A stretch of DNA of 64,000 nt from the NCBI GenBank assembly GCA_902623585.1, contig CACNUO010000005.1, forward strand, positions 984 to 64,983, written 5' to 3'. The position numbers and the translations under genes are program-made. Below are positions 1 through 48,644 of the stretch, piece after piece. Each line of letters opens with the position of its first letter. Within the stretch, counting starts at the first letter, position 1. The DNA comes from an uncultured Alphaproteobacteria bacterium (GTDB lineage Bacteria; Pseudomonadota; Alphaproteobacteria; HIMB59; GCA-002718135). Under the pieces are notes generated by a model. It worked only from the letters and a program-made list of their open reading frames with translations, did no database searches and was not told the DNA's origin.

Positions 1-871
1 CAAAAGAAGAACTAGATTAGAAAGATTAAAAATTGCCTTATCAAAAGCTCCAATCTCAGCTTGGTTTGGTATGATTGTACTATTCATATATTTTTTTGCT
101 GCAATATTTGCTCCCTTAATTGCTCCACATGGAGAGGCAGAAATATTCCCAGTAGCTTATGCTCCTTGGGGTGATGGCCATATATTTGGTACTGATCAAA
201 TTGGAAGAGATATTTTTTCTCGCATTATCTATGCTGCAAGAAATACAATTGGTATTTGTTTATTGGCTACTTTTATTGCTTTAGGAATTGGAACAGTATT
301 TGGAATTATAGCTGCTTTGGATAGAAGATATTTAGATCAACTATTAAGTAGAATAGTAGACACTCTTATGGCTATACCTGTAATGATTTTTACTTTTATA
401 CTTTTATCAGTTTTTGGACCTACTAATTTTAATTTAATTGTCATTTTAGGAATTTTGGAATCAACTAGATTTTTTAGAATATCAAGATCAGTTGCTGTTG
501 GTCAAGTTGTTCTAGAATATGTTGAGGTCGCGAGGCTAAGAGGTGAAAATTTATCATATATTATTTTCAGAGAAATACTTCCTAATATAGCTTCACCTTT
601 GATTATTGAGTTTGGTTTAAGGTTCATATTTATAATTTTTACAATATCTAGTTTAAGTTTTTTAGGAATTGGAATTCAACCCCCTTCAGCAGATTGGGCA
701 TCAATGGTGAGGGAAAATGCAATACTTATTCAATATGCACAATATGATATAACAGCAGGTTTAACACCATTAATTCCAGCTGCTGCAATTGCTTTGCTTT
801 GTGTATCAATTAATTTTGTTGTTGATTGGTATCTTTACATTACTAGCGGATTAAAAGATGACGTCAAATAA
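1..871 (+). CDS. Peptide/nickel-family ABC transporter permease (DppC/OppC-like), 5'-truncated by window edge
   Basis: GTDQIGRDIFSRIIY and EAA-like loop (YVEVARLRGE...ILPN); the frame is open from position 2 (KRRTRLERLK...) so the true start lies upstream of the window. Confidence 0.9.
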   Translation, partial: KRRTRLERLKIALSKAPISAWFGMIVLFIYFFAAIFAPLIAPHGEAEIFPVAYAPWGDGHIFGTDQIGRDIFSRIIYAARNTIGICLLATFIALGIGTVFGIIAALDRRYLDQLLSRIVDTLMAIPVMIFTFILLSVFGPTNFNLIVILGILESTRFFRISRSVAVGQVVLEYVEVARLRGENLSYIIFREILPNIASPLIIEFGLRFIFIIFTISSLSFLGIGIQPPSADWASMVRENAILIQYAQYDITAGLTPLIPAAAIALLCVSINFVVDWYLYITSGLKDDVK

Positions 872-7897: not shown

Positions 7898-8818
7898 TTA
7901 TAATTTATATTTTTTCTTTAATTCTAGCAAATCTATTAAAAAATTATCTCTTATATTGCTTAAATCTTTTATAGAATGATTCTTTGATTGTTTTTTTGTG
8001 CCTTTAATGATTTTTTCTTTAAGTTTTTTTGTTAGTTTTGGAGATTTGAGTTTAGTCCATGGAAGCTTCAAAGCTGGTCCAAACTGATCTAGCATATGTT
8101 TCATACCCATTTCTCCTCCCGCTAAGTGAAATGTCAAAAAAGTTCCCATTAGAGCCCATCTCATACCAGGACCATAAGTTATTGATTCATCTAAATCTTT
8201 TGTTGAAGCATATCCATCATTTATAATATGTAAACCCTCTCTCCACAAAGCTTCTTGCAATCTATCAGATAAAAAGCCCGGTAATTCTTTTTCTAACAAT
8301 AATGTTTTCATTTTAATTTTTTGATAAAATTTTTTTGCTTTATTAAAATATAAATTTGTAGTTTTTTTACCTTTTACAATTTCAACCAAAGGGAGAATAT
8401 ATACAGGGTTAAATGGATGAGCTATGATTAACCTTTTTGGATTAATACATTTTGATTGTAAATCTGATGGAAGTAAACCAGATGAACTTGAAGCAATTAT
8501 TGAATTTGAGGGTGAATATTTACTTATATTTTTTATAACATCTTTTTTTAAAGTTAATCGTTCGGGTACATTTTCCTGAATTAAATCTGCATTTTTTACT
8601 GCTTCTTCAATACTGTCTACGATTTCCAAATTTTTGAAATTGATTTTTGTATTATATAATTTCTTTATAATTAAGTTTGTTCTTGTTATTTCTTCTTTTA
8701 GAAAATGTAATTGCTGAGAATTTTTATCAAATGCTTTGACTCTTATACCATTAGCTAGAAATCTAAGTATCCAGCCGGCACCAATTACACCAGTTCCAAT
8801 GACAGCAATATTTTTCAA
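7898..8818 (-). CDS. cdhA: L-carnitine dehydrogenase (3-hydroxyacyl-CoA dehydrogenase family)
   Basis: IGTGVIGAGW, QENVPE, SSSSGLLPS, HPFNPVY.LPLVE, DRLQEALWRE, GPGMRWA, QFGPALKLPWTKL; adjacent BKACE and thioesterase. Confidence 0.85.
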   Translation of the reverse strand: MKNIAVIGTGVIGAGWILRFLANGIRVKAFDKNSQQLHFLKEEITRTNLIIKKLYNTKINFKNLEIVDSIEEAVKNADLIQENVPERLTLKKDVIKNISKYSPSNSIIASSSSGLLPSDLQSKCINPKRLIIAHPFNPVYILPLVEIVKGKKTTNLYFNKAKKFYQKIKMKTLLLEKELPGFLSDRLQEALWREGLHIINDGYASTKDLDESITYGPGMRWALMGTFLTFHLAGGEMGMKHMLDQFGPALKLPWTKLKSPKLTKKLKEKIIKGTKKQSKNHSIKDLSNIRDNFLIDLLELKKKYKL

Positions 8819-8819
8819 A

Positions 8820-9710
8820 TTAAAAATGTTTTTTTAGTTTTAATTTCTCTCTAGTTTGTTGAGGGGATAAAATAGAAGCCCCCATATCTTCAACAATACA
8901 TCTTGCCTTTTCAACCAACTGTGCATTTGATGCAAAAACTCCTTTTTTTAAATAAAGATTGTCTTCAAGTCCCACACGAACATTTCCTCCCAAAATAACT
9001 GCCTGTGCAGCCATAGGCATTTGTGATCTTCCTATTCCAAACCCAGACCAAACACCTTCAGAAGGTATCATTTCAGCCATAGCTTTCATTGCGCTGGTTG
9101 TTGCAGGTGATCCCCAAGGTATGCCAAGGCATATTTGATAAAAAGGAGGACCATCAATTAAACCTTCTTTATAAAGTTGGTTAGCAAACCATAAATGACC
9201 CATTTCAAAAGCTTCCATTTCTGGTTTCACTCCAAGCTCCTGCATTTTTTTTGCTGCAGTTCTTAGTTGTATCGGTGTATGAATAAAAGTCATGTTTGAG
9301 TCACCAAAATTTAGTGAACCGCAGTCTAAAGTACAAATTTCAGGCAATAACTCTTCAACATGTTCTAATCTGCTTAATGCATCGATCATATCTGTATTTG
9401 CTCCCACTGGATTTAAAGGATCTTTACCTGTTCCCACTTCAAAATCACCACCCATACCTGTAGTAAAATTTAAAACTACATCAGTTTCAGAGGAGCGAAT
9501 TCTATCTGCCACTTCTTTATAATAACTTAAATTCCTAGAAGGTTTGCCATCAGGTTCTCTTACATGTACATGAGCTATTGCTGCGCCCGCTTTGGCAGCT
9601 TCAATTGAAGCATCAGCAATTTGTTTTGGTGTTATAGGTAATTCAGGATGTTTACCTGCTGTATCACCAGATCCTGTTACAGCACATGAAATTATTACTT
9701 CATTATTCAT
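8820..9710 (-). CDS. cdhC: Beta-keto acid cleavage enzyme (BKACE/DUF849), 3-dehydrocarnitine cleavage type
   Basis: [41 protein letters not shown]. Confidence 0.85.
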
Positions 9711-9752
9711 TATTTTAAACTACTATATTTTTTGAATTAATAAAGAAAAACA

Positions 9753-10220
9753 ATGAAGATATATTTAAATTCAGGAAGAGTTAAAAAAGAATGGACCGAT
9801 TACAATGGTCATATGAATTTGGCATTTTATATTCATCTTTTTGATGCTGGATGGGAAGTTCTTTTACAAAAATTTAATATGGGTGAAACTTCTGCAAAAA
9901 CAGAGAAGAAAACTACTTTTGCCGTAGAGTCACACACAACTTATGACAAAGAAGTGAAAGAGGGTGATGAAGTAGATATTAATTTGTTATTTCTTGATAG
10001 GGATAAAAAAAGATTAATTTATAAATTAGAAATGACACATAAGCTTGAAGGTTACAGAGCAGCAACAACAGAGGTTTGTTCTTTATATGTTGATTTAAAT
10101 ATTAGAAAAGTTTCTGAATTAGAATTAGAAAAGCAAAAAGATATAGATAAATTTATTCAAGAAAATAAAAATAACTTTGATCCAGGTAACCTTACTCTAA
10201 TCAACAAGTTAAAAAAATAA
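9753..10220 (+). CDS. Hot-dog thioesterase, probable betainyl-CoA thioesterase
   Basis: EWTDYNGHMN motif (4HBT-like); next to cdhA/cdhC. Confidence 0.75.
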   Translation: MKIYLNSGRVKKEWTDYNGHMNLAFYIHLFDAGWEVLLQKFNMGETSAKTEKKTTFAVESHTTYDKEVKEGDEVDINLLFLDRDKKRLIYKLEMTHKLEGYRAATTEVCSLYVDLNIRKVSELELEKQKDIDKFIQENKNNFDPGNLTLINKLKK

Positions 10221-25732: not shown

Positions 25733-27319
25733 ATGGAAGATAAAGTATATTTATTTGATACCACACTTAGAGATGGTCAGCAAACAACAGGAGTTAATTT
25801 TTCTGTTAGTGACAAAATGAATATATCTCAACATCTTGATGATTTAGGAATAGATTACATTGAAGGTGGATGGCCGGGAGCAAATCCTACCGATAATGAT
25901 TTTTTTTCAAGAAATACAAAATTTTCAAAAAGTAAATTAACTGCCTTTGGTATGACAAGAAGACCAGGGAGAAGTGCAGATAACGATCCAGGACTAAATG
26001 CACTTATTAATTCAAGCGCAAGTTGTGTTTGTATTGTCGGTAAATCATCATCATTTCACGTAAAAAATGCTTTAGAAATATCTGAAGATGAAAATTTAAA
26101 AATGATCAGTGATAGTATTCAATCAATAAAAAATAAAAACAAAGAGTCAATTTTTGATGCAGAACATTTTTTTGATGGCTTTAAAGAAAATAAAGAGTTT
26201 GCATTGAATTGTATTAAAGCAGCGTATGAGGCTGGTGCAAGATGGGTTGTTCTTTGTGATACAAATGGGGGAACTCTTCCAGATGAAATTTACAATATTG
26301 TTTCAGAAGTAGTAAAAGTTATACCAGGTCAAAATGTTGGTATACATGCTCACAATGATACTGATAATGCAGTTGCAAATGCATTAGCAGCTATTAATGC
26401 TGGAGCAAGACAGATACAGGGAACGATTAACGGTTTAGGAGAAAGATGTGGAAATACTAATTTAATCTCCTTAATTCCATCTTTGGTTTTAAAAACAAAA
26501 TATCAAACTAACATTTCAAAAGATAAATTAAAAAATTTAATTCACATTTCCAGAACCTTGAATGATATTCTTAACATGCCTTCAAGAAAAAATGCTCCAT
26601 ATGTTGGAGATCATGCTTTTTCTCATAAAGGTGGATTGCATGCATCCGCAATAGAAAAAAATTCTTCAACTTATGAACATATTGAACCAGAAATAGTTGG
26701 TAATTCTAGAAACGTCGTAATTTCTAATCAGGCAGGAAGATCTAATATATTAAATCAATTAAATAAGATTAATATTGATCTACCTAAAAATGAAATCAAT
26801 AATATCTTAGAGATTATCAAGGAAAAAGAATCAGAAGGATATTCATTTGATACTGCTTTAGCTAGTTTTGAACTATTAGTAAGACGTCATCTTGGTCATT
26901 TTGAGGATTTTTATAATTTAGAAAAATTTAGAGTCACAGATGAAAGAAGATGGAATGCTAAAGGTGAAATTGTTACTGAAGCAGAGGCTACAGTTTTTTT
27001 AAAAGTTAAAGATTCAAATATGATGACAGTGGGCACTGGAAATGGTCCAGTGAATGCTATTGATAGTGCATTAAGAAAAGCTTTAATTGATTATTATCCT
27101 AATCTCAAAGATTTAAAGTTAACTGATTACAAAGTTATGATTCTTTCATCAGAAAAAGGTACTGGTGCTATCACAAGAGTTTTAATTGAATCATCTGATT
27201 CTACTAATACACATTGGACAACTATTGGCGTATCTCCAAATATTATTGATGCATCTTATAGTGCTATTTTTGATAGCATTACTTTTAAGTTATTAAATGA
27301 TTTAAAGAATAAAAATTGA
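25733..27319 (+). CDS. cimA: Citramalate synthase
   Basis: DTTLRDGQQ, EGGWPGANP, DAEHFFDG, HAHND, HKGGLHAS, GNGPVNA. Confidence 0.9.
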   Translation: MEDKVYLFDTTLRDGQQTTGVNFSVSDKMNISQHLDDLGIDYIEGGWPGANPTDNDFFSRNTKFSKSKLTAFGMTRRPGRSADNDPGLNALINSSASCVCIVGKSSSFHVKNALEISEDENLKMISDSIQSIKNKNKESIFDAEHFFDGFKENKEFALNCIKAAYEAGARWVVLCDTNGGTLPDEIYNIVSEVVKVIPGQNVGIHAHNDTDNAVANALAAINAGARQIQGTINGLGERCGNTNLISLIPSLVLKTKYQTNISKDKLKNLIHISRTLNDILNMPSRKNAPYVGDHAFSHKGGLHASAIEKNSSTYEHIEPEIVGNSRNVVISNQAGRSNILNQLNKINIDLPKNEINNILEIIKEKESEGYSFDTALASFELLVRRHLGHFEDFYNLEKFRVTDERRWNAKGEIVTEAEATVFLKVKDSNMMTVGTGNGPVNAIDSALRKALIDYYPNLKDLKLTDYKVMILSSEKGTGAITRVLIESSDSTNTHWTTIGVSPNIIDASYSAIFDSITFKLLNDLKNKN

Positions 27320-28026
27320 CTCCAAAAAATCCAAGTATAATTTTAGTTAGACCCCAACTTCCTGAAAACATTGGAATGGTTGCTCGTGTTATGCACAACT
27401 TTGGTTTAAAAGATCTAATTATTGTTTCGCCAAGAGATAAATGGTTAAACAATAAATCAATAAATGCAGCAAAAAAAGCAACGAAAATTATTAACAATAT
27501 TAAAGTTTATGACGATTTAGAAATTGCACTTTCTAAATTTTCTTATGTTGTGGCCACAACGAATAGAAGAAGATATTTGGAAAAAAATTCTACTAACGAT
27601 TTTAAATTCATTAAAAGAAAAATTATTGTTAATAAAAAAACAGCAATACTTTTTGGTCCTGAAAATTCAGGACTTTCAAATGAGGATTTGAGATTATCTG
27701 ATATTATTTTTACTATTGAAACAAGTAGTAAAAGTAATTCATTAAACCTTTCTCATGCAGTTACTGTTTTAAGTCATAAATTATTTGAATTGAATAATTT
27801 AAAAATTACTAATTCTATTTCAATTGAAAAAGATAATATTAGTAAATATCAATTATCTAAATTCTTAAATTATGTGATTGAGAAACTTGAAAATAAAAAA
27901 TTTTTTACTCCAAATGAAAAAAAAGAAAGTATGAAAAATAATATTTATAGTATTTTCACAAAAATCCCTCTCACAAAGAAAGAATTGCAGACATTATGGG
28001 GAATTACTAAAAAACTTAATAAATAA
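27316..28026 (+). CDS. trmJ: tRNA 2'-O-methyltransferase, TrmJ/LasT (SPOUT)
   Basis: PENIGMVARVM.NFG, FGPENSGLSN, SLNLSHAV. Confidence 0.85.
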   Translation: MTPKNPSIILVRPQLPENIGMVARVMHNFGLKDLIIVSPRDKWLNNKSINAAKKATKIINNIKVYDDLEIALSKFSYVVATTNRRRYLEKNSTNDFKFIKRKIIVNKKTAILFGPENSGLSNEDLRLSDIIFTIETSSKSNSLNLSHAVTVLSHKLFELNNLKITNSISIEKDNISKYQLSKFLNYVIEKLENKKFFTPNEKKESMKNNIYSIFTKIPLTKKELQTLWGITKKLNK

Positions 28027-28049
28027 GCCAAAAATTGAGTATATTAAAT

Positions 28050-28077
28050 TTGACATAGTACTTTAAATCACTATATA
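28050..28077 (+). promoter_or_regulatory. Sigma70-type promoter of rpsD
   Basis: TTGACA (28050-28055) with 16-bp spacer to TATATA (28072-28077), 12 nt before ATG. Confidence 0.55.
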
Positions 28078-28089
28078 CGCCTGATAATA

Positions 28090-28710
28090 ATGACAAAAAG
28101 ACATAACGCTAAATACAAAATCGATAGAAGGTTAGGTGTGAACTTATGGGGGAGACCTAAAAGCCCTTTTAATAGAAGAAACTCAAAACCTGGTCAGCAC
28201 GGTGTACAGGGACAAAGAAAGAAATTATCAGATTATGGAAATCAGTTATTTGCTAAGCAAAAACTTAAATTTTATTACGGTGATTTAACTGAAAGACAAT
28301 TTAGGAATATTTTCAAAAAAGCTTCTAATATTAAAGGTGATACAAGTCAGATTTTAATTGAACTTTTAGAAAGAAGATTAGATGCTACAGTCTATAGAAT
28401 GAAATTTGTACCTACAATTTTTTCTGCAAGACAGCTAGTTAATCATGGTCATGTAAAGGTCAATGGAAAAAGAGTTAACATTCCATCTTATAGTGTTAAT
28501 GATGGAGATGAAATCTCAATAAGAGATAAAAGTAAAGAAATTAATTTAATTGTAGAATCAGTTAGTTCTCAAGAAAGAGAAATTCCAGAATACTTAGAAG
28601 TTGATGTAAAAGAGTTGAAAGGTCGTTTTTTAAGAGCACCTCTAATTCATGATGTCCCTTATCCTGTGACTATGGAGCCTAATTTAGTTATTGAGTATTA
28701 TTCAAGATAA
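28090..28710 (+). CDS. rpsD: 30S ribosomal protein S4
   Basis: [35 protein letters not shown]. Confidence 0.98.
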
Positions 28711-29587
28711 TTTCTTTTTTATAACTATCATAAATATAAATTATTATTCCTATCCAAATAATTATGAATGATATTAATTTAATTTGTAAAATTTCTTCAT
28801 TAAGAATAAATACTGAAGTTATAAAATGAAATGTTGGTGCTAAGTAAAATAAAACTCCAGCAAGACCTAATTGAATAAATTTTAAACCCAAATTAAAAAA
28901 AAATAATGGAAAAATCGTTACAGCTCCAGTTAAAATTAAAAATAATGATGTCTTCAAATCAATACTAAAGATACTATTTTCATTTTGCCAAAATAAATAA
29001 ACTAAATATGGGATAGATATTAAAGATATTATGAAAGTCTCATATAGTAAACCAATTGAAGGATTAACATTAACTTGTTTTCTTAATAATCCATATATTG
29101 CCCATGAGGTTCCAATCCAAATTATTAGTAATGGAAATTGATTTAAATTAATAAATAAGAATAATATACCTGACAACATGAGACATACAGATACAAATTT
29201 AGGCTTATTTATTTTCTCATTTAAAAAAAAATAACCAAGAACAATACTTATCATTGGAGTAATAAAGTAACCCATTGATGCATCCTGAACTCTTTCTTGT
29301 CCTACAGAATAAATAAAACCTGCCCAGTTACCAGTAATAAGAAAAGCTGTAATTGTTAAAATAAAAATTCTTTTTCTAGATTTAAATATTTCAATAAAAT
29401 CACTTATGTTTGAATTTAAAATTAATAATAAAAATAAAAAGATGAATGACCAAAAACCTCTATGAGCTACAACTTCTATAGTCTCAACGTGATTTAATTC
29501 ATTAAAAAAAAGGGGTTGTGGAAGCCCCCAAAAAATTGCTGCAATACAGGAAAATATTACACCTTTAGAAAATTTATTATTTAACAA
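28688..29587 (-). CDS. rarD: RarD/EamA family transporter
   Basis: 10-TM profile; [26 protein letters not shown]. Confidence 0.88.
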
Positions 29588-29588
29588 A

Positions 29589-29930
29589 CTAGGACGGGTT
29601 TACGTCTATTCCATTTGTATTGAATAATTCTAATAATTCACCACTTTCAAACATTTCAGTTATGATATCACACCCACCTATAAATTCTTTCTTAACATAA
29701 AGCTGTGGTATGGTTGGCCAATTAGAATATATTTTAATACCTTCTCTCATTTCGTCACTCTCTAACACATTCACACTTCCAAATTTAACACCTACTTTAT
29801 TTAATATTTCAACTACTCTTGCAGAAAATCCACACATTGGAAATACAGGAGTGCCCTTCATGAAAAGCATAACATCATTTGAGTTAATTTCATTTTCTAT
29901 ATTTTGAGATACATGGTCGTTATTATTCAT
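29589..29930 (-). CDS. grxD: Monothiol glutaredoxin Grx4
   Basis: FMKGTP.FPMCGFS, WPTIPQLY, GGCDI. Confidence 0.96.
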   Translation of the reverse strand: MNNNDHVSQNIENEINSNDVMLFMKGTPVFPMCGFSARVVEILNKVGVKFGSVNVLESDEMREGIKIYSNWPTIPQLYVKKEFIGGCDIITEMFESGELLELFNTNGIDVNPS

Positions 29931-29932
29931 TA

Positions 29933-30163
29933 TTACTCCGATACAGTTTTTAGCTTAAGTGCGTGCAAATCACTACCCATTTTACCATTAAAAGCATCAT
30001 AAACCATCTTATGTTGTTCTACTCTTGTTTTTCCAGAAAAGGATTTTGACCTCACTGTAGCACTGTAATGATCACCGTCTCCTTTAAGATCTTCAATTTC
30101 AACAGTTGCATCTGGTATAGCTTCTTTAATAAATTGTTCAATTTGTTCAACAGTCATTGGCAT
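29933..30163 (-). CDS. BolA family protein
   Basis: GDGDHY, F.GKTRVEQHKMVY, LHAL. Confidence 0.93.
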   Translation of the reverse strand: MPMTVEQIEQFIKEAIPDATVEIEDLKGDGDHYSATVRSKSFSGKTRVEQHKMVYDAFNGKMGSDLHALKLKTVSE

Positions 30164-30200
30164 AGTTATAAAATAGTTCAGATATTAAAAAAAATAAAGA

Positions 30201-31493
30201 CTATTTAATTTTATTTTTAAAAATCCAATCTATTTTCTTTAGATCGTTATCATCTTTAATGATTTTTTTGATTTCTTCTGAATTTAATTTTTTGTTTAAT
30301 TCTTTATTTTTTTGTAAAACTCGAGAAAAATTCTTATTATTATTCCATGTTTCCATGGCACTTTCTTGAACAATTTTATAGGCTTCTTGTCTTTTCAATC
30401 CTTTTTCAATTAGTTTTAACATAATATTGTGAGTTCTATGTAAACCTCCAAGCATATTCAAATTTTTCAACATATTTTTTGGATAGACTTTTAAATTCTT
30501 TATAATGCCATTTAAACGACTCAGTGCAAAATCAGTTGCAATTGTAATATCTGGAGTCGTAATTCTTTCAACACTAGAATGGCTAATATCTCTCTCGTGC
30601 CAAAGAACAATATTTTCTAGTGAAGGTATTACACCACTTCTAATATAACGTGAGATACCTGTTAAGTTCTCACTTAATACTGGATTACGTTTGTGAGGCA
30701 TTGCAGAAGAACCCTTTTGCTTAGTAGAAAAACTTTCTTCAACTTCTAATACCTCTGTTTTTTGTAAATTTCGAATTTCAACTGCAAACCTCTCAATTGA
30801 AGATGCTAAAATTCCTAGTACAGAGAAAAAATACGCATGCCTATCTCTTGGAATTATTTGAGTTGATACATCTTCAGAATTTAGTTGAAGTTTTTTTGCT
30901 ACATAATCTTGAACTCGTGGGTCTATAGAATTAAATGTTCCAACAGGTCCAGAAATAGCACAAACAGATATTTCGTTGATCGCCTGATCAAGTCTTTCTA
31001 AATTTCTTTTAAACTCAAAATAAAAGGAAGATAATTTTAATCCAAAAGTAATAGGTTCAGCATGTATCCCATGACTTCTTCCAATCATTAATGTGTTTTT
31101 ATATTTTTTAGATTTGATTTTTAAACTTTGAATACATTCTACTAAACTTTTTCTTATTATTTCAGAGGTTTGCTTAAGTTGTACAGAAAATGAAGTATCA
31201 ATAATATCACTTGATGTTACACCAAAATGAAAATACTTTGATGATTCGCCAATATATTTGCTTACATTATTAATATAAGCAACAACATCATGTTTTGTTT
31301 CTTTTTCAATTTTTTCTATTTCTTTAATATTAAATTTTGCTTTATTTCTTATTTCTTTTGCTGCTTTTTTTGGAATAACGCCGAGCATTGCTTGTTTTTC
31401 TGCAATCAAACACTCAATTTCTGTCCAAATTGTAAATTTATTTTCTAATGACCAAATCTTTTCAATTTTAGGTCTATTATATCTAGGTATCAT
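30201..31493 (-). CDS. purB: Adenylosuccinate lyase
   Basis: MIPRY, TKHDV, GRSHGIHAEP, GSSAMPHKRNP, WHERDISHSS. Confidence 0.96.
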   Translation of the reverse strand: MIPRYNRPKIEKIWSLENKFTIWTEIECLIAEKQAMLGVIPKKAAKEIRNKAKFNIKEIEKIEKETKHDVVAYINNVSKYIGESSKYFHFGVTSSDIIDTSFSVQLKQTSEIIRKSLVECIQSLKIKSKKYKNTLMIGRSHGIHAEPITFGLKLSSFYFEFKRNLERLDQAINEISVCAISGPVGTFNSIDPRVQDYVAKKLQLNSEDVSTQIIPRDRHAYFFSVLGILASSIERFAVEIRNLQKTEVLEVEESFSTKQKGSSAMPHKRNPVLSENLTGISRYIRSGVIPSLENIVLWHERDISHSSVERITTPDITIATDFALSRLNGIIKNLKVYPKNMLKNLNMLGGLHRTHNIMLKLIEKGLKRQEAYKIVQESAMETWNNNKNFSRVLQKNKELNKKLNSEEIKKIIKDDNDLKKIDWIFKNKIK

Positions 31494-31503
31494 TTTTTTC
31501 TAC

Positions 31504-32298
31504 TTATACATCCTTTATTGGAAAAGCTGTATTATTTTTAGATAATGTAAATACTTCATTTCCTTCATCTGTTATTCCAATTGTATGCTCGAATTGAGCA
31601 GATAAAGATTTATCTTTTGTTACAGCTGTCCATCCATCATTTAATATTTTTGTTTGCCATCCACCTAAATTAATCATTGGTTCAATAGTTAAAAACATTC
31701 CAGGTTCTAACATTGGTCCCTCACCTGGTTCTCCAAAGTGTAAAACACTAGGTGGTGTATGAAATTCTTTTCCAATTCCATGACCACAAAAATCTCTTAC
31801 CACAGAATAACCTTTTCCTTCTGCAAGTTTCTGAATTTTATTTCCTATATCACCAATATGCTTTCCAGGTTTAGCTTCACTAATACCAATTAATAAAGAT
31901 TCATAAGTTATTTTCAAAAATTCATAATTTTTTTTATTTGTCTTGCCTGCAACAAACATTCTCGAACTATCACCATGCCAACCATTTAGAATAACTGTTA
32001 CATCTACATTTACTATATCACCATCAGATAGAATTTTCCTTTCAGAAGGTATTCCATGACAAACAACATGATTTACAGATGTACAAACTGATTTTGGGAA
32101 ACCTTTATAATTTAAAGGAGCAGGTATTGCTTTATTTTGAATAATTTGATCATGGCATATGTCATTTATTTCTTGAGTACTTATTCCTGGAACAATCTTT
32201 TCACTTAAAGAATCTAGAACATCAGCAGCTAAAGAACCAGCCTCCCTCATGCCCTCAAAATCTTTTTTCGTATGTATTGGGATATTGTTGTTTCTCAT
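31504..32298 (-). CDS. map: Methionine aminopeptidase type I
   Basis: CTSVNHVVCHGIP, GDSSR, FCGHGIG, TIEPMIN, SAQFEHT. Confidence 0.96.
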   Translation of the reverse strand: MRNNNIPIHTKKDFEGMREAGSLAADVLDSLSEKIVPGISTQEINDICHDQIIQNKAIPAPLNYKGFPKSVCTSVNHVVCHGIPSERKILSDGDIVNVDVTVILNGWHGDSSRMFVAGKTNKKNYEFLKITYESLLIGISEAKPGKHIGDIGNKIQKLAEGKGYSVVRDFCGHGIGKEFHTPPSVLHFGEPGEGPMLEPGMFLTIEPMINLGGWQTKILNDGWTAVTKDKSLSAQFEHTIGITDEGNEVFTLSKNNTAFPIKDV

Positions 32299-46501: not shown

Positions 46502-47101
46502 ATGAAATCAAAAAACTGGGTTAATAGACAAAAAAATGATCAGTTTGTAAAGAAAGCTAAACAGTTAGGGTATATAAATCGAGCTGCGTTTAAACTAGAA
46601 GAGATTGAGCAAAAATATAAAATAATTGAACATTCTAAAGAAATACTAGAACTTGGATCTTCTCCAGGAGGTTGGACTCAGGTCATCTTAAATTACAATT
46701 CAAAAACTAGTATAACCTGTTTTGATTTATTAGATATGAAAATGAATAATCAACGTATAGCTTTCTATAGAGAGGATTTTTTAAAATTTAATTTTACTAA
46801 TTTAAAAAATAAATTTGATTTGGTTTTATCAGATGTAGCTCCTAATACAACTGGTCATCAATCAACAGATCATCTCAGGATAAGTCAATTAATATATGAA
46901 GTTATAGACAGATTAGAAATAATATTAAAAAAACAAGGATCATTTATATTCAAAATTTGGAAGGGAGAGGAAGAAAAGGAAATTATAAAGATGCTTAAAA
47001 AAATTTTTGATAAAGTTGAGTATTTTAAGCCAAAATCATCAAGACAAGAATCAAGTGAAATATTTATAATATCAAGAGGATTTAGATTGCATGAAGAGTA
47101 A
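46502..47101 (+). CDS. rlmE: 23S rRNA 2'-O-methyltransferase RlmE/FtsJ
   Basis: RAAFKL.EI, LGSSPGGW, SDVAPN, KPKSSR.ES.E; likely start MKSKNW at 46502. Confidence 0.93.
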   Translation: MKSKNWVNRQKNDQFVKKAKQLGYINRAAFKLEEIEQKYKIIEHSKEILELGSSPGGWTQVILNYNSKTSITCFDLLDMKMNNQRIAFYREDFLKFNFTNLKNKFDLVLSDVAPNTTGHQSTDHLRISQLIYEVIDRLEIILKKQGSFIFKIWKGEEEKEIIKMLKKIFDKVEYFKPKSSRQESSEIFIISRGFRLHEE

Positions 47102-48644
47102 ATTAGAAACTATTTTAATTGTAGATTATGGATCTCAATACACACAATTAATAGCTAGAAGAATAAGAGAGTTAGAAGTCTTTTGTCTTGTCTATCCTTT
47201 TAATAAAATTACGAAAAAAATTTTAAATGAAATCAAACCATCGGCATTTATATTATCTGGAGGACCTAGATCAGTACTCGACAAAAATGCCCCAAAATTA
47301 AATCAAGAAATTTTAAAAATGAAAAAACCAGTTTTAGCAATTTGCTATGGTATGCAATTAGTAACTAAAAATTTGAAAGGTGTAGTAAAACGTTCTAAGC
47401 ATAGAGAGTATGGTCACACTATTATAAATATTAAGAAAAAATCACTTTTATTTAAAGGAATAAACAAACGAAAAATCAAAGTATGGATGTCTCATGGAGA
47501 TAATATCAATAAAATACCAAAACTTTTTTCAATAACATCTTTATCAAACAATAAAATTATTTCATCAATTGAAAATAATAAAAATAAAATTTATTGCCTT
47601 CAATTTCATCCTGAGGTCTATCATACAGATTTTGGTTCAAAAATAATTAATAATTTTATTTTAAATATTGTAAATATAAAAAATAAATTCAAAATTCAAA
47701 AATTTATTGAAAATAAAGTATCAGAATTAAAAAATGAAATTAAGAATAAAAAAATAATCTGTGGTTTATCTGGAGGTGTAGATTCCACAGTGACTGCATA
47801 TTTATTAAGTAAAGCCGTTAACAAAAATGTTTATTGTATTTTTGTTGATCACGGTCTTCTAAGAAAAAATGAAGCTAACGAAGTGTCAAAAATATTTTCC
47901 AAAAAATTTGGCAAAAACTTTACTAAAATAAATGCTTCTAATATTTTTTTAAAAAATTTAAAAAATGTTTCTGATCCAGAGAAAAAAAGAAAAATTATTG
48001 GCAATACATTTATAGAAGTTTTTGATAAAGCAGCTAAAAAAATATCAAATGTAGATTATTTAGGGCAGGGGACTCTTTATCCAGATATTATAGAAAGTAT
48101 TCCATTTTTTGGTGGTCCAACAGCTAAAATCAAAAGTCACCATAATGTTGGGGGTTTACCAAAAAAAATGAAATTAAAAATTGTGGAGCCATTAAGAGAA
48201 TTATTTAAAGATGAGGTAAGAAATGTTGGAAGGCAACTAAAAATAGATAAACATTTACTTTTAAGACATCCTTTCCCAGGTCCAGGTTTAGCAATCCGCA
48301 TACCTGGGGTAATTGATAAAAAAAAGATCTTAATTCTTCAAGAGGCAGATCATATTTTTATAGAGTATCTAAAAGAGAAAAATCTTTATAATAAAATTTG
48401 GCAAGCTTTTGTTGTTCTTTTACCAGTAAAATCAGTAGGTGTTATGGGGGATGAAAGAACATATAATTACTCTGTTTCACTTAGAGCTATTACTTCAGTG
48501 GATGGAATGACAGCGGATTTTTATATGTTTACAAATAATCAATTAAAAGAAATATCATCTCGTATAATTAATAATGTTAAAGGTATTAACAGAGTATTAT
48601 ATGACTTTACATCTAAACCTCCTGGAACCATTGAGTGGGAATAA
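47091..48644 (+). CDS. guaA: GMP synthase (glutamine-hydrolysing)
   Basis: DYGSQYTQLIARR, ICYGMQ, QFHPE, SGGVDS, IKSHHNVGGLP, KPPGTIEWE. Confidence 0.98.
   Translation: MKSKLETILIVDYGSQYTQLIARRIRELEVFCLVYPFNKITKKILNEIKPSAFILSGGPRSVLDKNAPKLNQEILKMKKPVLAICYGMQLVTKNLKGVVKRSKHREYGHTIINIKKKSLLFKGINKRKIKVWMSHGDNINKIPKLFSITSLSNNKIISSIENNKNKIYCLQFHPEVYHTDFGSKIINNFILNIVNIKNKFKIQKFIENKVSELKNEIKNKKIICGLSGGVDSTVTAYLLSKAVNKNVYCIFVDHGLLRKNEANEVSKIFSKKFGKNFTKINASNIFLKNLKNVSDPEKKRKIIGNTFIEVFDKAAKKISNVDYLGQGTLYPDIIESIPFFGGPTAKIKSHHNVGGLPKKMKLKIVEPLRELFKDEVRNVGRQLKIDKHLLLRHPFPGPGLAIRIPGVIDKKKILILQEADHIFIEYLKEKNLYNKIWQAFVVLLPVKSVGVMGDERTYNYSVSLRAITSVDGMTADFYMFTNNQLKEISSRIINNVKGINRVLYDFTSKPPGTIEWE

Follow-up and report, generated by a model that had tools for sequence, protein, structure and literature searches.

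The subject of this analysis is the interval between purB, which encodes adenylosuccinate lyase, and the gene pair bolA-grxD in a 64,000-nucleotide stretch of DNA from an uncultured alphaproteobacterium (hereafter the window), where purC, purS, purQ and purL are missing from their classical position. The initial annotation of this stretch took the gap, together with vacant purF and guaB positions elsewhere in the window, as a sign that the organism depends on external purines. Examination of the remainder of the genome points the other way: the organism is very probably a purine prototroph, with its de novo genes gathered in a single module of ~11.7 kb on another contig. The ancestral purC-purS-purQ-purL block was removed between purB and bolA, and its functions would have been taken over by this module.

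A consolidated purine module elsewhere in the genome

The window corresponds to G000:C5:984-64983, G000 being an assembly of 1.11 Mb in 42 contigs with a completeness of 74.8% and a guanine-plus-cytosine (GC) content of ~29%. When its contigs were searched with profile models for purine genes, eight pathway genes were found together on contig C14 (Table 1), which is the kind of consolidated pur set elsewhere in the genome that the initial annotation had itself named in advance as speaking against purine dependence. All of purF, purD, purM and purC are among them, placing the genome outside the class of purine auxotrophs, defined here by the absence of these four genes anywhere in the genome. 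The open reading frames (ORFs) of the module have the lengths of those in a relative, G022. Furthermore, G000:C14:217->2 encodes residues 1-72 of the 975-residue PurL of G022 at 100% identity (tblastn), after which the contig ends.

The organization of the complete module can be read from these relatives. In G022, the 975-residue PurL is followed by a 254-residue PurQ of the GATase_5 type and then by mutY, while the groups purQ-purL, purM-purN-purF-purD-purC and purK-purE-guaB are contiguous in this genome and, among the genus relatives, at no fewer than 20 other loci. A purL match was obtained in 14 of the 24 genus relatives drawn, 13 of these being full-length with open frames of 745-980 residues (mostly 980), and where the position of purC or of the locus could be established as well, purL lay in the same cluster and was divergent from purM. 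The flanks in the genus relatives are a MATE transporter and a 159-residue ORF on one side and mutY on the other. The module of the window genome is accordingly predicted to carry purQ and purL on one strand and purM-purN-purF-purD-purC on the other, followed by purK-purE-guaB.

Contigs G023:C25 and G024:C34 of two other assemblies likewise begin ~290-310 nt upstream of purM, within the first purL codons. Since the three independent assemblies break at the same point, the break appears to be a recurrent one of assembly. This break alone would hide purQ and the greater part of purL, and we infer that the cell possesses both genes and a working pathway.

Beyond the module, the steps found in the genome include PurB and PurH, so that the inventory reads purF, purD, purN, purM, purK, purE, purC, purB and purH, with codons 1-72 only of purL and no purQ. 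The purB and guaA genes of the window, a two-piece purH on contig C10 and purA on contig C18 would complete the routes to adenosine monophosphate (AMP) and guanosine monophosphate (GMP). The purH gene is divided into an ORF of 199 residues, representing the inosine monophosphate (IMP) cyclohydrolase part, and one of 303 residues, representing the aminoimidazole carboxamide ribonucleotide transformylase part, the ATG of the second lying 11 nt before the stop codon of the first. The same split is seen in 24 genus relatives, while a single ORF of ~500 residues occurs in 10 other genomes of the window's genus (g1) and in other genera. Its recurrence across relatives favors gene fission over sequencing error, and the split looks like a genuine fission. 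The purA gene is represented by two fragments that abut at a contig end in opposite orientation, which suggests that this end of C18 is chimeric or folded back. As regards salvage, an adenine phosphoribosyltransferase (Apt) and a true GMP reductase (G000:C1:79535-80566; 546 bits, NF003470) are present, and a loose scan of the assembly for phosphoribosyl pyrophosphate-binding motifs returned only Apt and Upp among small proteins.

Table 1. Location of purine genes and neighbouring features. Plain coordinates are positions in the window; all others are given by assembly and contig.
Feature	Location	Strand	Evidence
purB, adenylosuccinate lyase, 430 residues	30201..31493	-	TIGR00928, 490.2 bits, cut-off 326.2, residues 1-425
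AT-rich spacer, 37 nt, at the place where the sister family holds purC-purS-purQ-purL	30164..30200	.	Sequence and comparison with G025
bolA-family gene, 76 residues	29933..30163	-	Pfam PF01722, 50.5 bits, cut-off 25.7
grxD, Grx4-type monothiol glutaredoxin, 113 residues, CGFS	29589..29930	-	TIGR00365, 149.5 bits, cut-off 117.1
rarD-type EamA transporter	28688..29587	-	TIGR00688, 139.6 bits, cut-off 130
map, methionyl aminopeptidase, conserved upstream flank	31504..32298	-	TIGR00500, 315.6 bits; also in G025 and 16 family loci
cimA (citramalate synthase), trmJ-family methyltransferase, rpsD; conserved downstream flank	25733..28710	+	TIGR00977, 677 bits; TIGR00050, 169 bits; NF003717, 264 bits
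guaA, GMP synthase, without neighbouring guaB	47091..48644	+	TIGR00884, 459 bits at G000:C5:48683-49624
purM	G000:C14:291-1325	+	367 bits, above NCBIfam cut-off
purN	G000:C14, between purM and purF	+	187 bits, above NCBIfam cut-off
purF	G000:C14:1893-3380	+	492 bits, cut-off 350
purD	G000:C14, between purF and purC	+	469 bits, above NCBIfam cut-off
purC, predicted, long form	G000:C14:4629-5567	+	TIGR00081, 81 bits (below cut-off)
purK	G000:C14, after purC	-	346 bits, NF004679 cut-off 326
purE	G000:C14, between purK and guaB	-	207 bits, above NCBIfam cut-off
guaB, predicted, IMP-dehydrogenase-type, 371 residues	G000:C14:7159-8274	-	433 bits (below cut-off)
purH, two overlapping ORFs, 199 and 303 residues	G000:C10:9897-11400		
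purA, two fragments abutting at contig end	G000:C18:17773-18116	+ and -	Model positions 2-67 (+) and 223-276 (-)

Vacated native loci in the window and across the family

The absence of the four genes from the purB locus is genuine. The stop codon of purB lies at 30201 and the ATG of bolA at 30163, and the 37 nt between the two genes are too short for any pur remnant; the ORF coordinates and profile scores thus bear out the observation, made in the initial annotation, that purB is directly succeeded by bolA-grxD. PurB itself matches TIGR00928 over its full length and above the curated cut-off. In G025, a complete genome of the sister family, the genes run map-purB-purC-purS-purQ-purL-bolA-grxD-rpsD-trmJ-cimA, with a PurC of 238 residues and a PurL of 721 residues, so that the arrangement which the initial annotation gave as common in Alphaproteobacteria does occur in a close lineage. 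All genes of this locus are named by NCBIfam above cut-off except the bolA-like ORF (77 residues, without an NCBIfam match), which was identified through a 42% tblastn match to the BolA of the window. The window itself has map-purB-bolA-grxD-rarD-rpsD-trmJ-cimA at the same locus.

We compared the purB neighbourhoods of 16 further family genomes, which represent each of the 8 genera that have a genome of at least 80% completeness. In 16 of 16 loci purB is followed by bolA-grxD, and tblastn with the PurC, PurS, PurQ and PurL of the sister family found none of the four in any of them. Hence, the four genes are present between conserved flanks in G025 and absent there in the window and all 16 family loci. 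The purB-bolA junction is, on this comparison, a true deletion scar common to the whole family, from which the ancestral purC-purS-purQ-purL block was removed. Its occurrence in every family locus examined marks the deletion as old and family-wide and not as an artefact of assembly.

Comparison with G025 also supported the vacancies proposed for purF and guaB. In G025 guaB adjoins guaA, whereas the guaA of the window stands alone, and the only IMP dehydrogenase-type gene of the genome is the one on C14. The neighbours of the G025 purF map to 45-62 kb of the window, without purF there. Finally, the flanks of the G025 purD are adjacent to one another on G000:C2 with no purD between them, which adds a fourth vacated locus.

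In four of the 16 family loci (genera g3, g5, g6 and g8) the purB-bolA gap measures ~800 bp and is filled by an unrelated ORF of 248-256 residues (L027:4564-5310 in g6, L029:2866-3621 in g5, L030:2616-3371 in g8 and L031:2773-3543 in g3). The product begins with MCTSI, contains NRDE and has no NCBIfam match; it may be of the NRDE/TANGO2-like family.

Uncommon forms of three enzymes

Three of the steps would be carried out by enzyme forms unlike those of the sister family, namely a long PurC, a 975-residue PurL with a separate PurQ and without purS, and a GuaB devoid of the CBS region. The PurC encoded on C14 has 312 residues and aligns to TIGR00081 over residues 20-121 only, with 81.3 bits against a cut-off of 189.9, and so falls outside that equivalog. 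Its ortholog in G022, which is 96-97% identical, scores 118 bits (cut-off 20) with Pfam SAICAR_synt over residues 20-303, and the long PurC belongs, as a divergent form, to the SAICAR synthetase superfamily, with a function predicted on that ground. GuaB, at 371 residues, reaches 433 bits with TIGR01302 (cut-off 481.5), the match consisting of two segments with the CBS region left out, and so lies outside that equivalog, in which a CBS pair is inserted in the barrel. The G022 ortholog obtains 474 bits with Pfam IMPDH, the protein is 95-98% identical across the genus relatives, and its score lies far above those with GMP reductase models (~200 bits).

The 975-residue PurL scores 512.4 bits with the small-PurL family TIGR01736 over residues 211-973, below the cut-off of 525.75, and 208 and 273 bits with the single-chain large-PurL families TIGR01735 and TIGR01857, below the cut-offs of 1123 and 1057, respectively. 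It possesses an N-terminal extension of ~200-210 residues, an FGAR-AT linker and two AIRS/AIRS_C pairs. The 254-residue PurQ is the product of a separate GATase_5-type gene and matches the glutaminase end of large PurL, while no candidate ORF for purS was present between purM, purL, purQ and mutY in G022. The arrangement resembles the three-subunit formylglycinamidine ribonucleotide synthetase (PurS-PurQ-small PurL, the last of about 720 residues) in that its PurL aligns to small PurL and its PurQ is separate, but differs from it in the ~200-residue N-terminal stretch and in having no purS gene. With the single-chain large PurL (about 1240-1300 residues, with a fused glutaminase) it shares the N-terminal stretch, the lack of purS and the resemblance of PurQ to the glutaminase end; here, however, the glutaminase is separate and PurL has 975 residues. 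Among Atlas clusters, those with the same PurL build come most often from Spirochaetota, Planctomycetota and archaea. From their Pfam domains and genomic context, the long PurC, this PurL-PurQ pair and the CBS-less GuaB are predicted to perform the activities that their names imply.

Probable prototrophy and its alternatives

A number of observations weigh against prototrophy. The purL and purQ models retrieved nothing above threshold in the 74.8%-complete assembly; purQ and ~900 codons of purL are absent from it, their presence being deduced from relatives. The long PurC, the 975-residue PurL and GuaB all score below their NCBIfam equivalog cut-offs, purH is found as two ORFs, and purA is known only from its two oppositely oriented fragments at a contig end. 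Moreover, given a deletion seen in the near relative G071 and described below, loss of the module in individual cells is possible.

Could this organism nevertheless have lost de novo purine synthesis altogether, so that it lives on external purines and has kept purB solely for the conversion of IMP to AMP? The empty native positions of purC-purS-purQ-purL, purF, guaB and purD would be expected in that case, as would the unsuccessful purL and purQ searches and the presence of both the adenine phosphoribosyltransferase and GMP reductase, and the pathway is indeed missing from 15 of 46 family genomes. We consider it highly improbable nonetheless, as eight intact pathway genes lie together on C14, purL begins there and is interrupted by the contig end, and purH is present on C10. 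The argument that gene loss at three loci amounts to auxotrophy is therefore sound in one part, as the native loci have been emptied and the conclusion fits some relatives, but it does not apply to this organism. A slightly greater, though still very small, probability attaches to a module that is present but broken in this cell line, through truncation of purL or loss of purQ, leaving a functional auxotroph. Only 72 purL codons are visible, and G071 has lost nine of ten genes in one deletion; however, the truncation coincides with the end of the contig and not with an internal stop codon or a junction, the 72 codons match those of an intact relative at 100% identity, breaks at this place recur in two other assemblies, and the other ORFs of the module are full-length.

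The remaining alternative, that C14 is a contaminant or a chimera foreign to this genome, seems to us the most far-fetched of all. Chimeric-looking contig ends do exist in the assembly, as in the purA pieces of C18, but many genus relatives carry this module, bordered by the same flanks, on contigs of 100-630 kb and with proteins 92-100% identical, and the remainder of C14 continues with those very flanks. The contamination given for the assembly is 0.04. Prototrophy by way of the C14 module is the reading that we retain.

Distribution of the module and its deletion in a near relative

Module genes were counted in family genomes at least 80% complete, of which there are 46 besides G000. Within g1, purF was found in 30 of 37 genomes, purD in 29, purM and the long purC in 28 each and the CBS-less guaB in 27. 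The single g5 genome has all five, and the eight genomes of six other genera have none, two weak purF matches aside; these matches, in g4 and g6, reach 108-112 bits in frames of 610-618 residues and are read as putative GlmS-like proteins. In the sister family, purD occurs in 34 of 34 genomes and a short purC in 32 of 34. A second, partial purF match is seen in the g5 genome (G073:C45:11328-12050; 250 bits, model positions 207-432), besides the purF of its module.

The four genes purF, purD, purM and purC are all absent from 15 of the 46 genomes, seven of them in g1 and eight constituting the whole of the six other genera. These module-less genomes have kept purB in 14 cases and purH in 13. 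Across the family, purB is found in 44 of 47 genomes and in every genus, in agreement with the initial proposal that PurB is retained, as it is kept throughout while the other de novo purine genes vary. Four module-less genomes that were tested have GMP reductase (in G042, at G042:C54:37584-38330; 541 bits, NF003470) and no IMP dehydrogenase. The Hpt family (TIGR01203) scored above cut-off in none of the 47 family genomes, other phosphoribosyltransferases and kinases not having been searched in the module-less kin. With no IMP dehydrogenase-type match in the module-less genomes (except G071, which kept guaB), a need for a guanine- or xanthine-type purine is predicted.

The empty site could not be read in G042 and G077, two genomes without the module in which the MATE transporter and mutY flanks lie on different contigs, but is directly visible in G071, which is closely related to the window genome (87-99% identity in the flank proteins). 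Here, a 120-kb contig without Ns carries the 159-residue ORF, guaB (95% identical to that of G022), a spacer of ~31 nt and mutY. Comparison with G022 by blastn places the breakpoints at the stop codons of guaB and purQ, and ~10.6 kb are gone together with purE, purK, purC, purD, purF, purN, purM, purL and purQ. The junction falls at ~8700-8760 of L144 (G071:C3:20000-39999). The alignment of the G071 mutY gene falls into two segments (8754-9065 and 9061-9801), possibly because of a frameshift.

Auxotrophy is thus plausible for kin without the module, including the close relative G071, and not for the organism of the window. More broadly, at least four native purine loci may have been emptied in the family ancestor, so that the one ~11.7-kb module would decide purine self-sufficiency and cells without it, which keep purB, purH, guaA and GMP reductase, would be natural auxotrophs. 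This wider reading, on which we find ourselves evenly balanced, also takes in the variation of the module between genera and between near-identical species, the predicted requirement for a guanine- or xanthine-type purine, and a Black-Queen polymorphism of an abundant ocean lineage, in which the organism of the window would be a 'helper'.

Origin of the module

Two histories may be considered for the module, an old resident repeatedly lost and an acquisition by transfer, and we place repeated loss slightly ahead. In the second, the family ancestor would already have been an auxotroph, and the module would have been regained by horizontal transfer into the g1 subclade of the window and into g5. 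We regard this as a possible, if doubtful, course of events. A tree of six concatenated flank proteins, rooted on the sister family, nests carriers among non-carriers, such that two gains or at least six losses are required, and the basal genera g6, g4, g9 and g3 are without the module. The long PurC is found in only 5 of 399 other genomes of the class (at least 90% complete), four of which have the order purL / purM-purN-purF-purD-purC-purE, as do eight alphaproteobacterial loci of a contig scan, three of these eight being from the same genomes as among the four.

Several observations speak against regain. Between g1 and g5 the module proteins share 51-72% identity, a divergence close to that of housekeeping proteins (50-87%), and there is no GC anomaly, the module having 31.8% against 29.0 ± 2.9% for genomic 8-kb windows. 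The module PurF and PurC are most similar, at 62.8% and 65%, to genes at native loci of a related lineage, represented by L067 and L068, as against 40-51% for other module carriers. Furthermore, deletion of the whole module is directly seen in G071, and repeated loss is therefore cheap. A PurF tree of 43 rows gives no resolution: it was built with 40 of 150 listed representatives (the first 40 of 430-530 residues), leaves 23 of 40 branches open and supports neither descent nor transfer.

The loci of this lineage (L068:10004-14041 and L067:2144-6144) have the classical order map-purB-purC-purS-purQ-purL-bolA-grxD, in which purC is of the long form (296 residues). This looks like an in-place swap relative to the short purC of the sister family. 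The purF of L067/L068 lies in its native neighbourhood. The long PurC and the 975-residue PurL might be taken for foreign, but the occurrence of the long PurC at this native locus keeps a foreign origin from being a firm claim.

In a PurC tree of 70 rows, for which the near-identical rows of the genus were reduced to three and 11 metagenome proteins were chosen by hand, g1, g5 and the L067/L068 lineage form one clade with a support of 100. When representatives were searched with PurF, the nearest clusters had 54-55% identity and included one from Rhodobacterales, with the sister family at 48.6%. For PurD, the nearest named relatives are ordinary Alphaproteobacteria (47-49%), compared with 40% for the sister family, 43-44% for L067/L068 and 42-45% for other module carriers.

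Comparison with known systems and implications

Relative to the classical alphaproteobacterial purB locus, as found in G025, the window has identical flanks (map-purB and bolA-grxD-rpsD-trmJ-cimA), but the four middle genes are absent and their functions appear to have moved to non-equivalent forms on C14. The consolidated pur operon of Bacillus subtilis, purEKBCSQLFMNHD, likewise unites most de novo genes in one block that a single deletion could remove. The module differs from it in occupying two strands, in lacking purB, purH and purS, in including guaB, and in its 975-residue PurL and long PurC. Closer in gene order are public metagenome-assembled genomes labelled Rhodospirillaceae, Alphaproteobacteria or Pseudomonadota, which have purL (of the 975-residue type) / purM-purN-purF-purD-purC (long)-purE, often with purQ. 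Their proteins are, however, only 34-51% identical to those of the window genome, and no purK or guaB stands beside purE within the stretches fetched.

The distribution recalls the Black-Queen-type dependence of streamlined ocean bacteria, in which likewise many members are without a costly pathway that their kin keep. The dependence of SAR11 on glycine/serine is one such case, reportedly described by Tripp et al. in 2009. In the family studied here, by comparison, members of a single genus differ in the trait, which hinges on one deletable module. Operon-like pur clusters and purine auxotrophs are known kinds, and the module itself is present in public genomes. In the parts consulted of the literature on purines or auxotrophy in AEGEAN-169, HIMB59, SAR11 and marine streamlining, we found no description of the module, nor any account of de novo purine genes being lost or relocated in the clade, although supplementary gene-presence tables may bear on this. 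The passages dealt with purine uptake or breakdown, a nucleotide-binding domain of unknown function (DUF) or heme auxotrophy (PMC12636525, PMC11366302, PMC7318151, PMC13712998, PMC10308909, PMC11698098).

The finding in the window itself is largely explained by relocation and replacement, and it is the presence or absence of the module at the level of the family that merits following. It also carries a caution: auxotrophy does not follow when pathway genes are absent from their usual neighbourhood, even at three or four loci of one window, as they may be grouped elsewhere in the genome. With the de novo purine route and IMP dehydrogenase in one deletable block, and with carriers and non-carriers coexisting within a genus, the family offers a natural experiment. 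If non-carriers depend on dissolved purines, this would have a bearing on purine cross-feeding in the surface ocean and, for uncultured relatives, on the design of media, to which purines, perhaps guanine or xanthine, might be added. The module, furthermore, pairs uncommon predicted enzyme forms (the long PurC, PurL with a separate PurQ, and the CBS-less GuaB), with the split PurH as an additional feature of the subclade.

Genes adjoining the purB site

The neighbours of purB in the window are conserved. The bolA product belongs to the BolA family (PF01722), while the NCBIfam equivalog for BolA of the Escherichia coli type is not reached (23 versus 137 bits). A CGFS active-site motif is the defining trait of the Grx4-type monothiol glutaredoxins; the grxD translation has this motif, and its TIGR00365 score above cut-off assigns it to the same group. 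The gene lies just beyond the range 29933-31493 covered by the initial annotation. As in the window, cimA, trmJ and rpsD flank the G025 locus; in the window, these plus-strand genes face the minus-strand genes map-purB-bolA-grxD-rarD. Both the window and 13 of the 15 family loci extending far enough have the rarD-type transporter between grxD and rpsD; it is absent from this position in G041, in G075, in the sister family and in the L067/L068 lineage.

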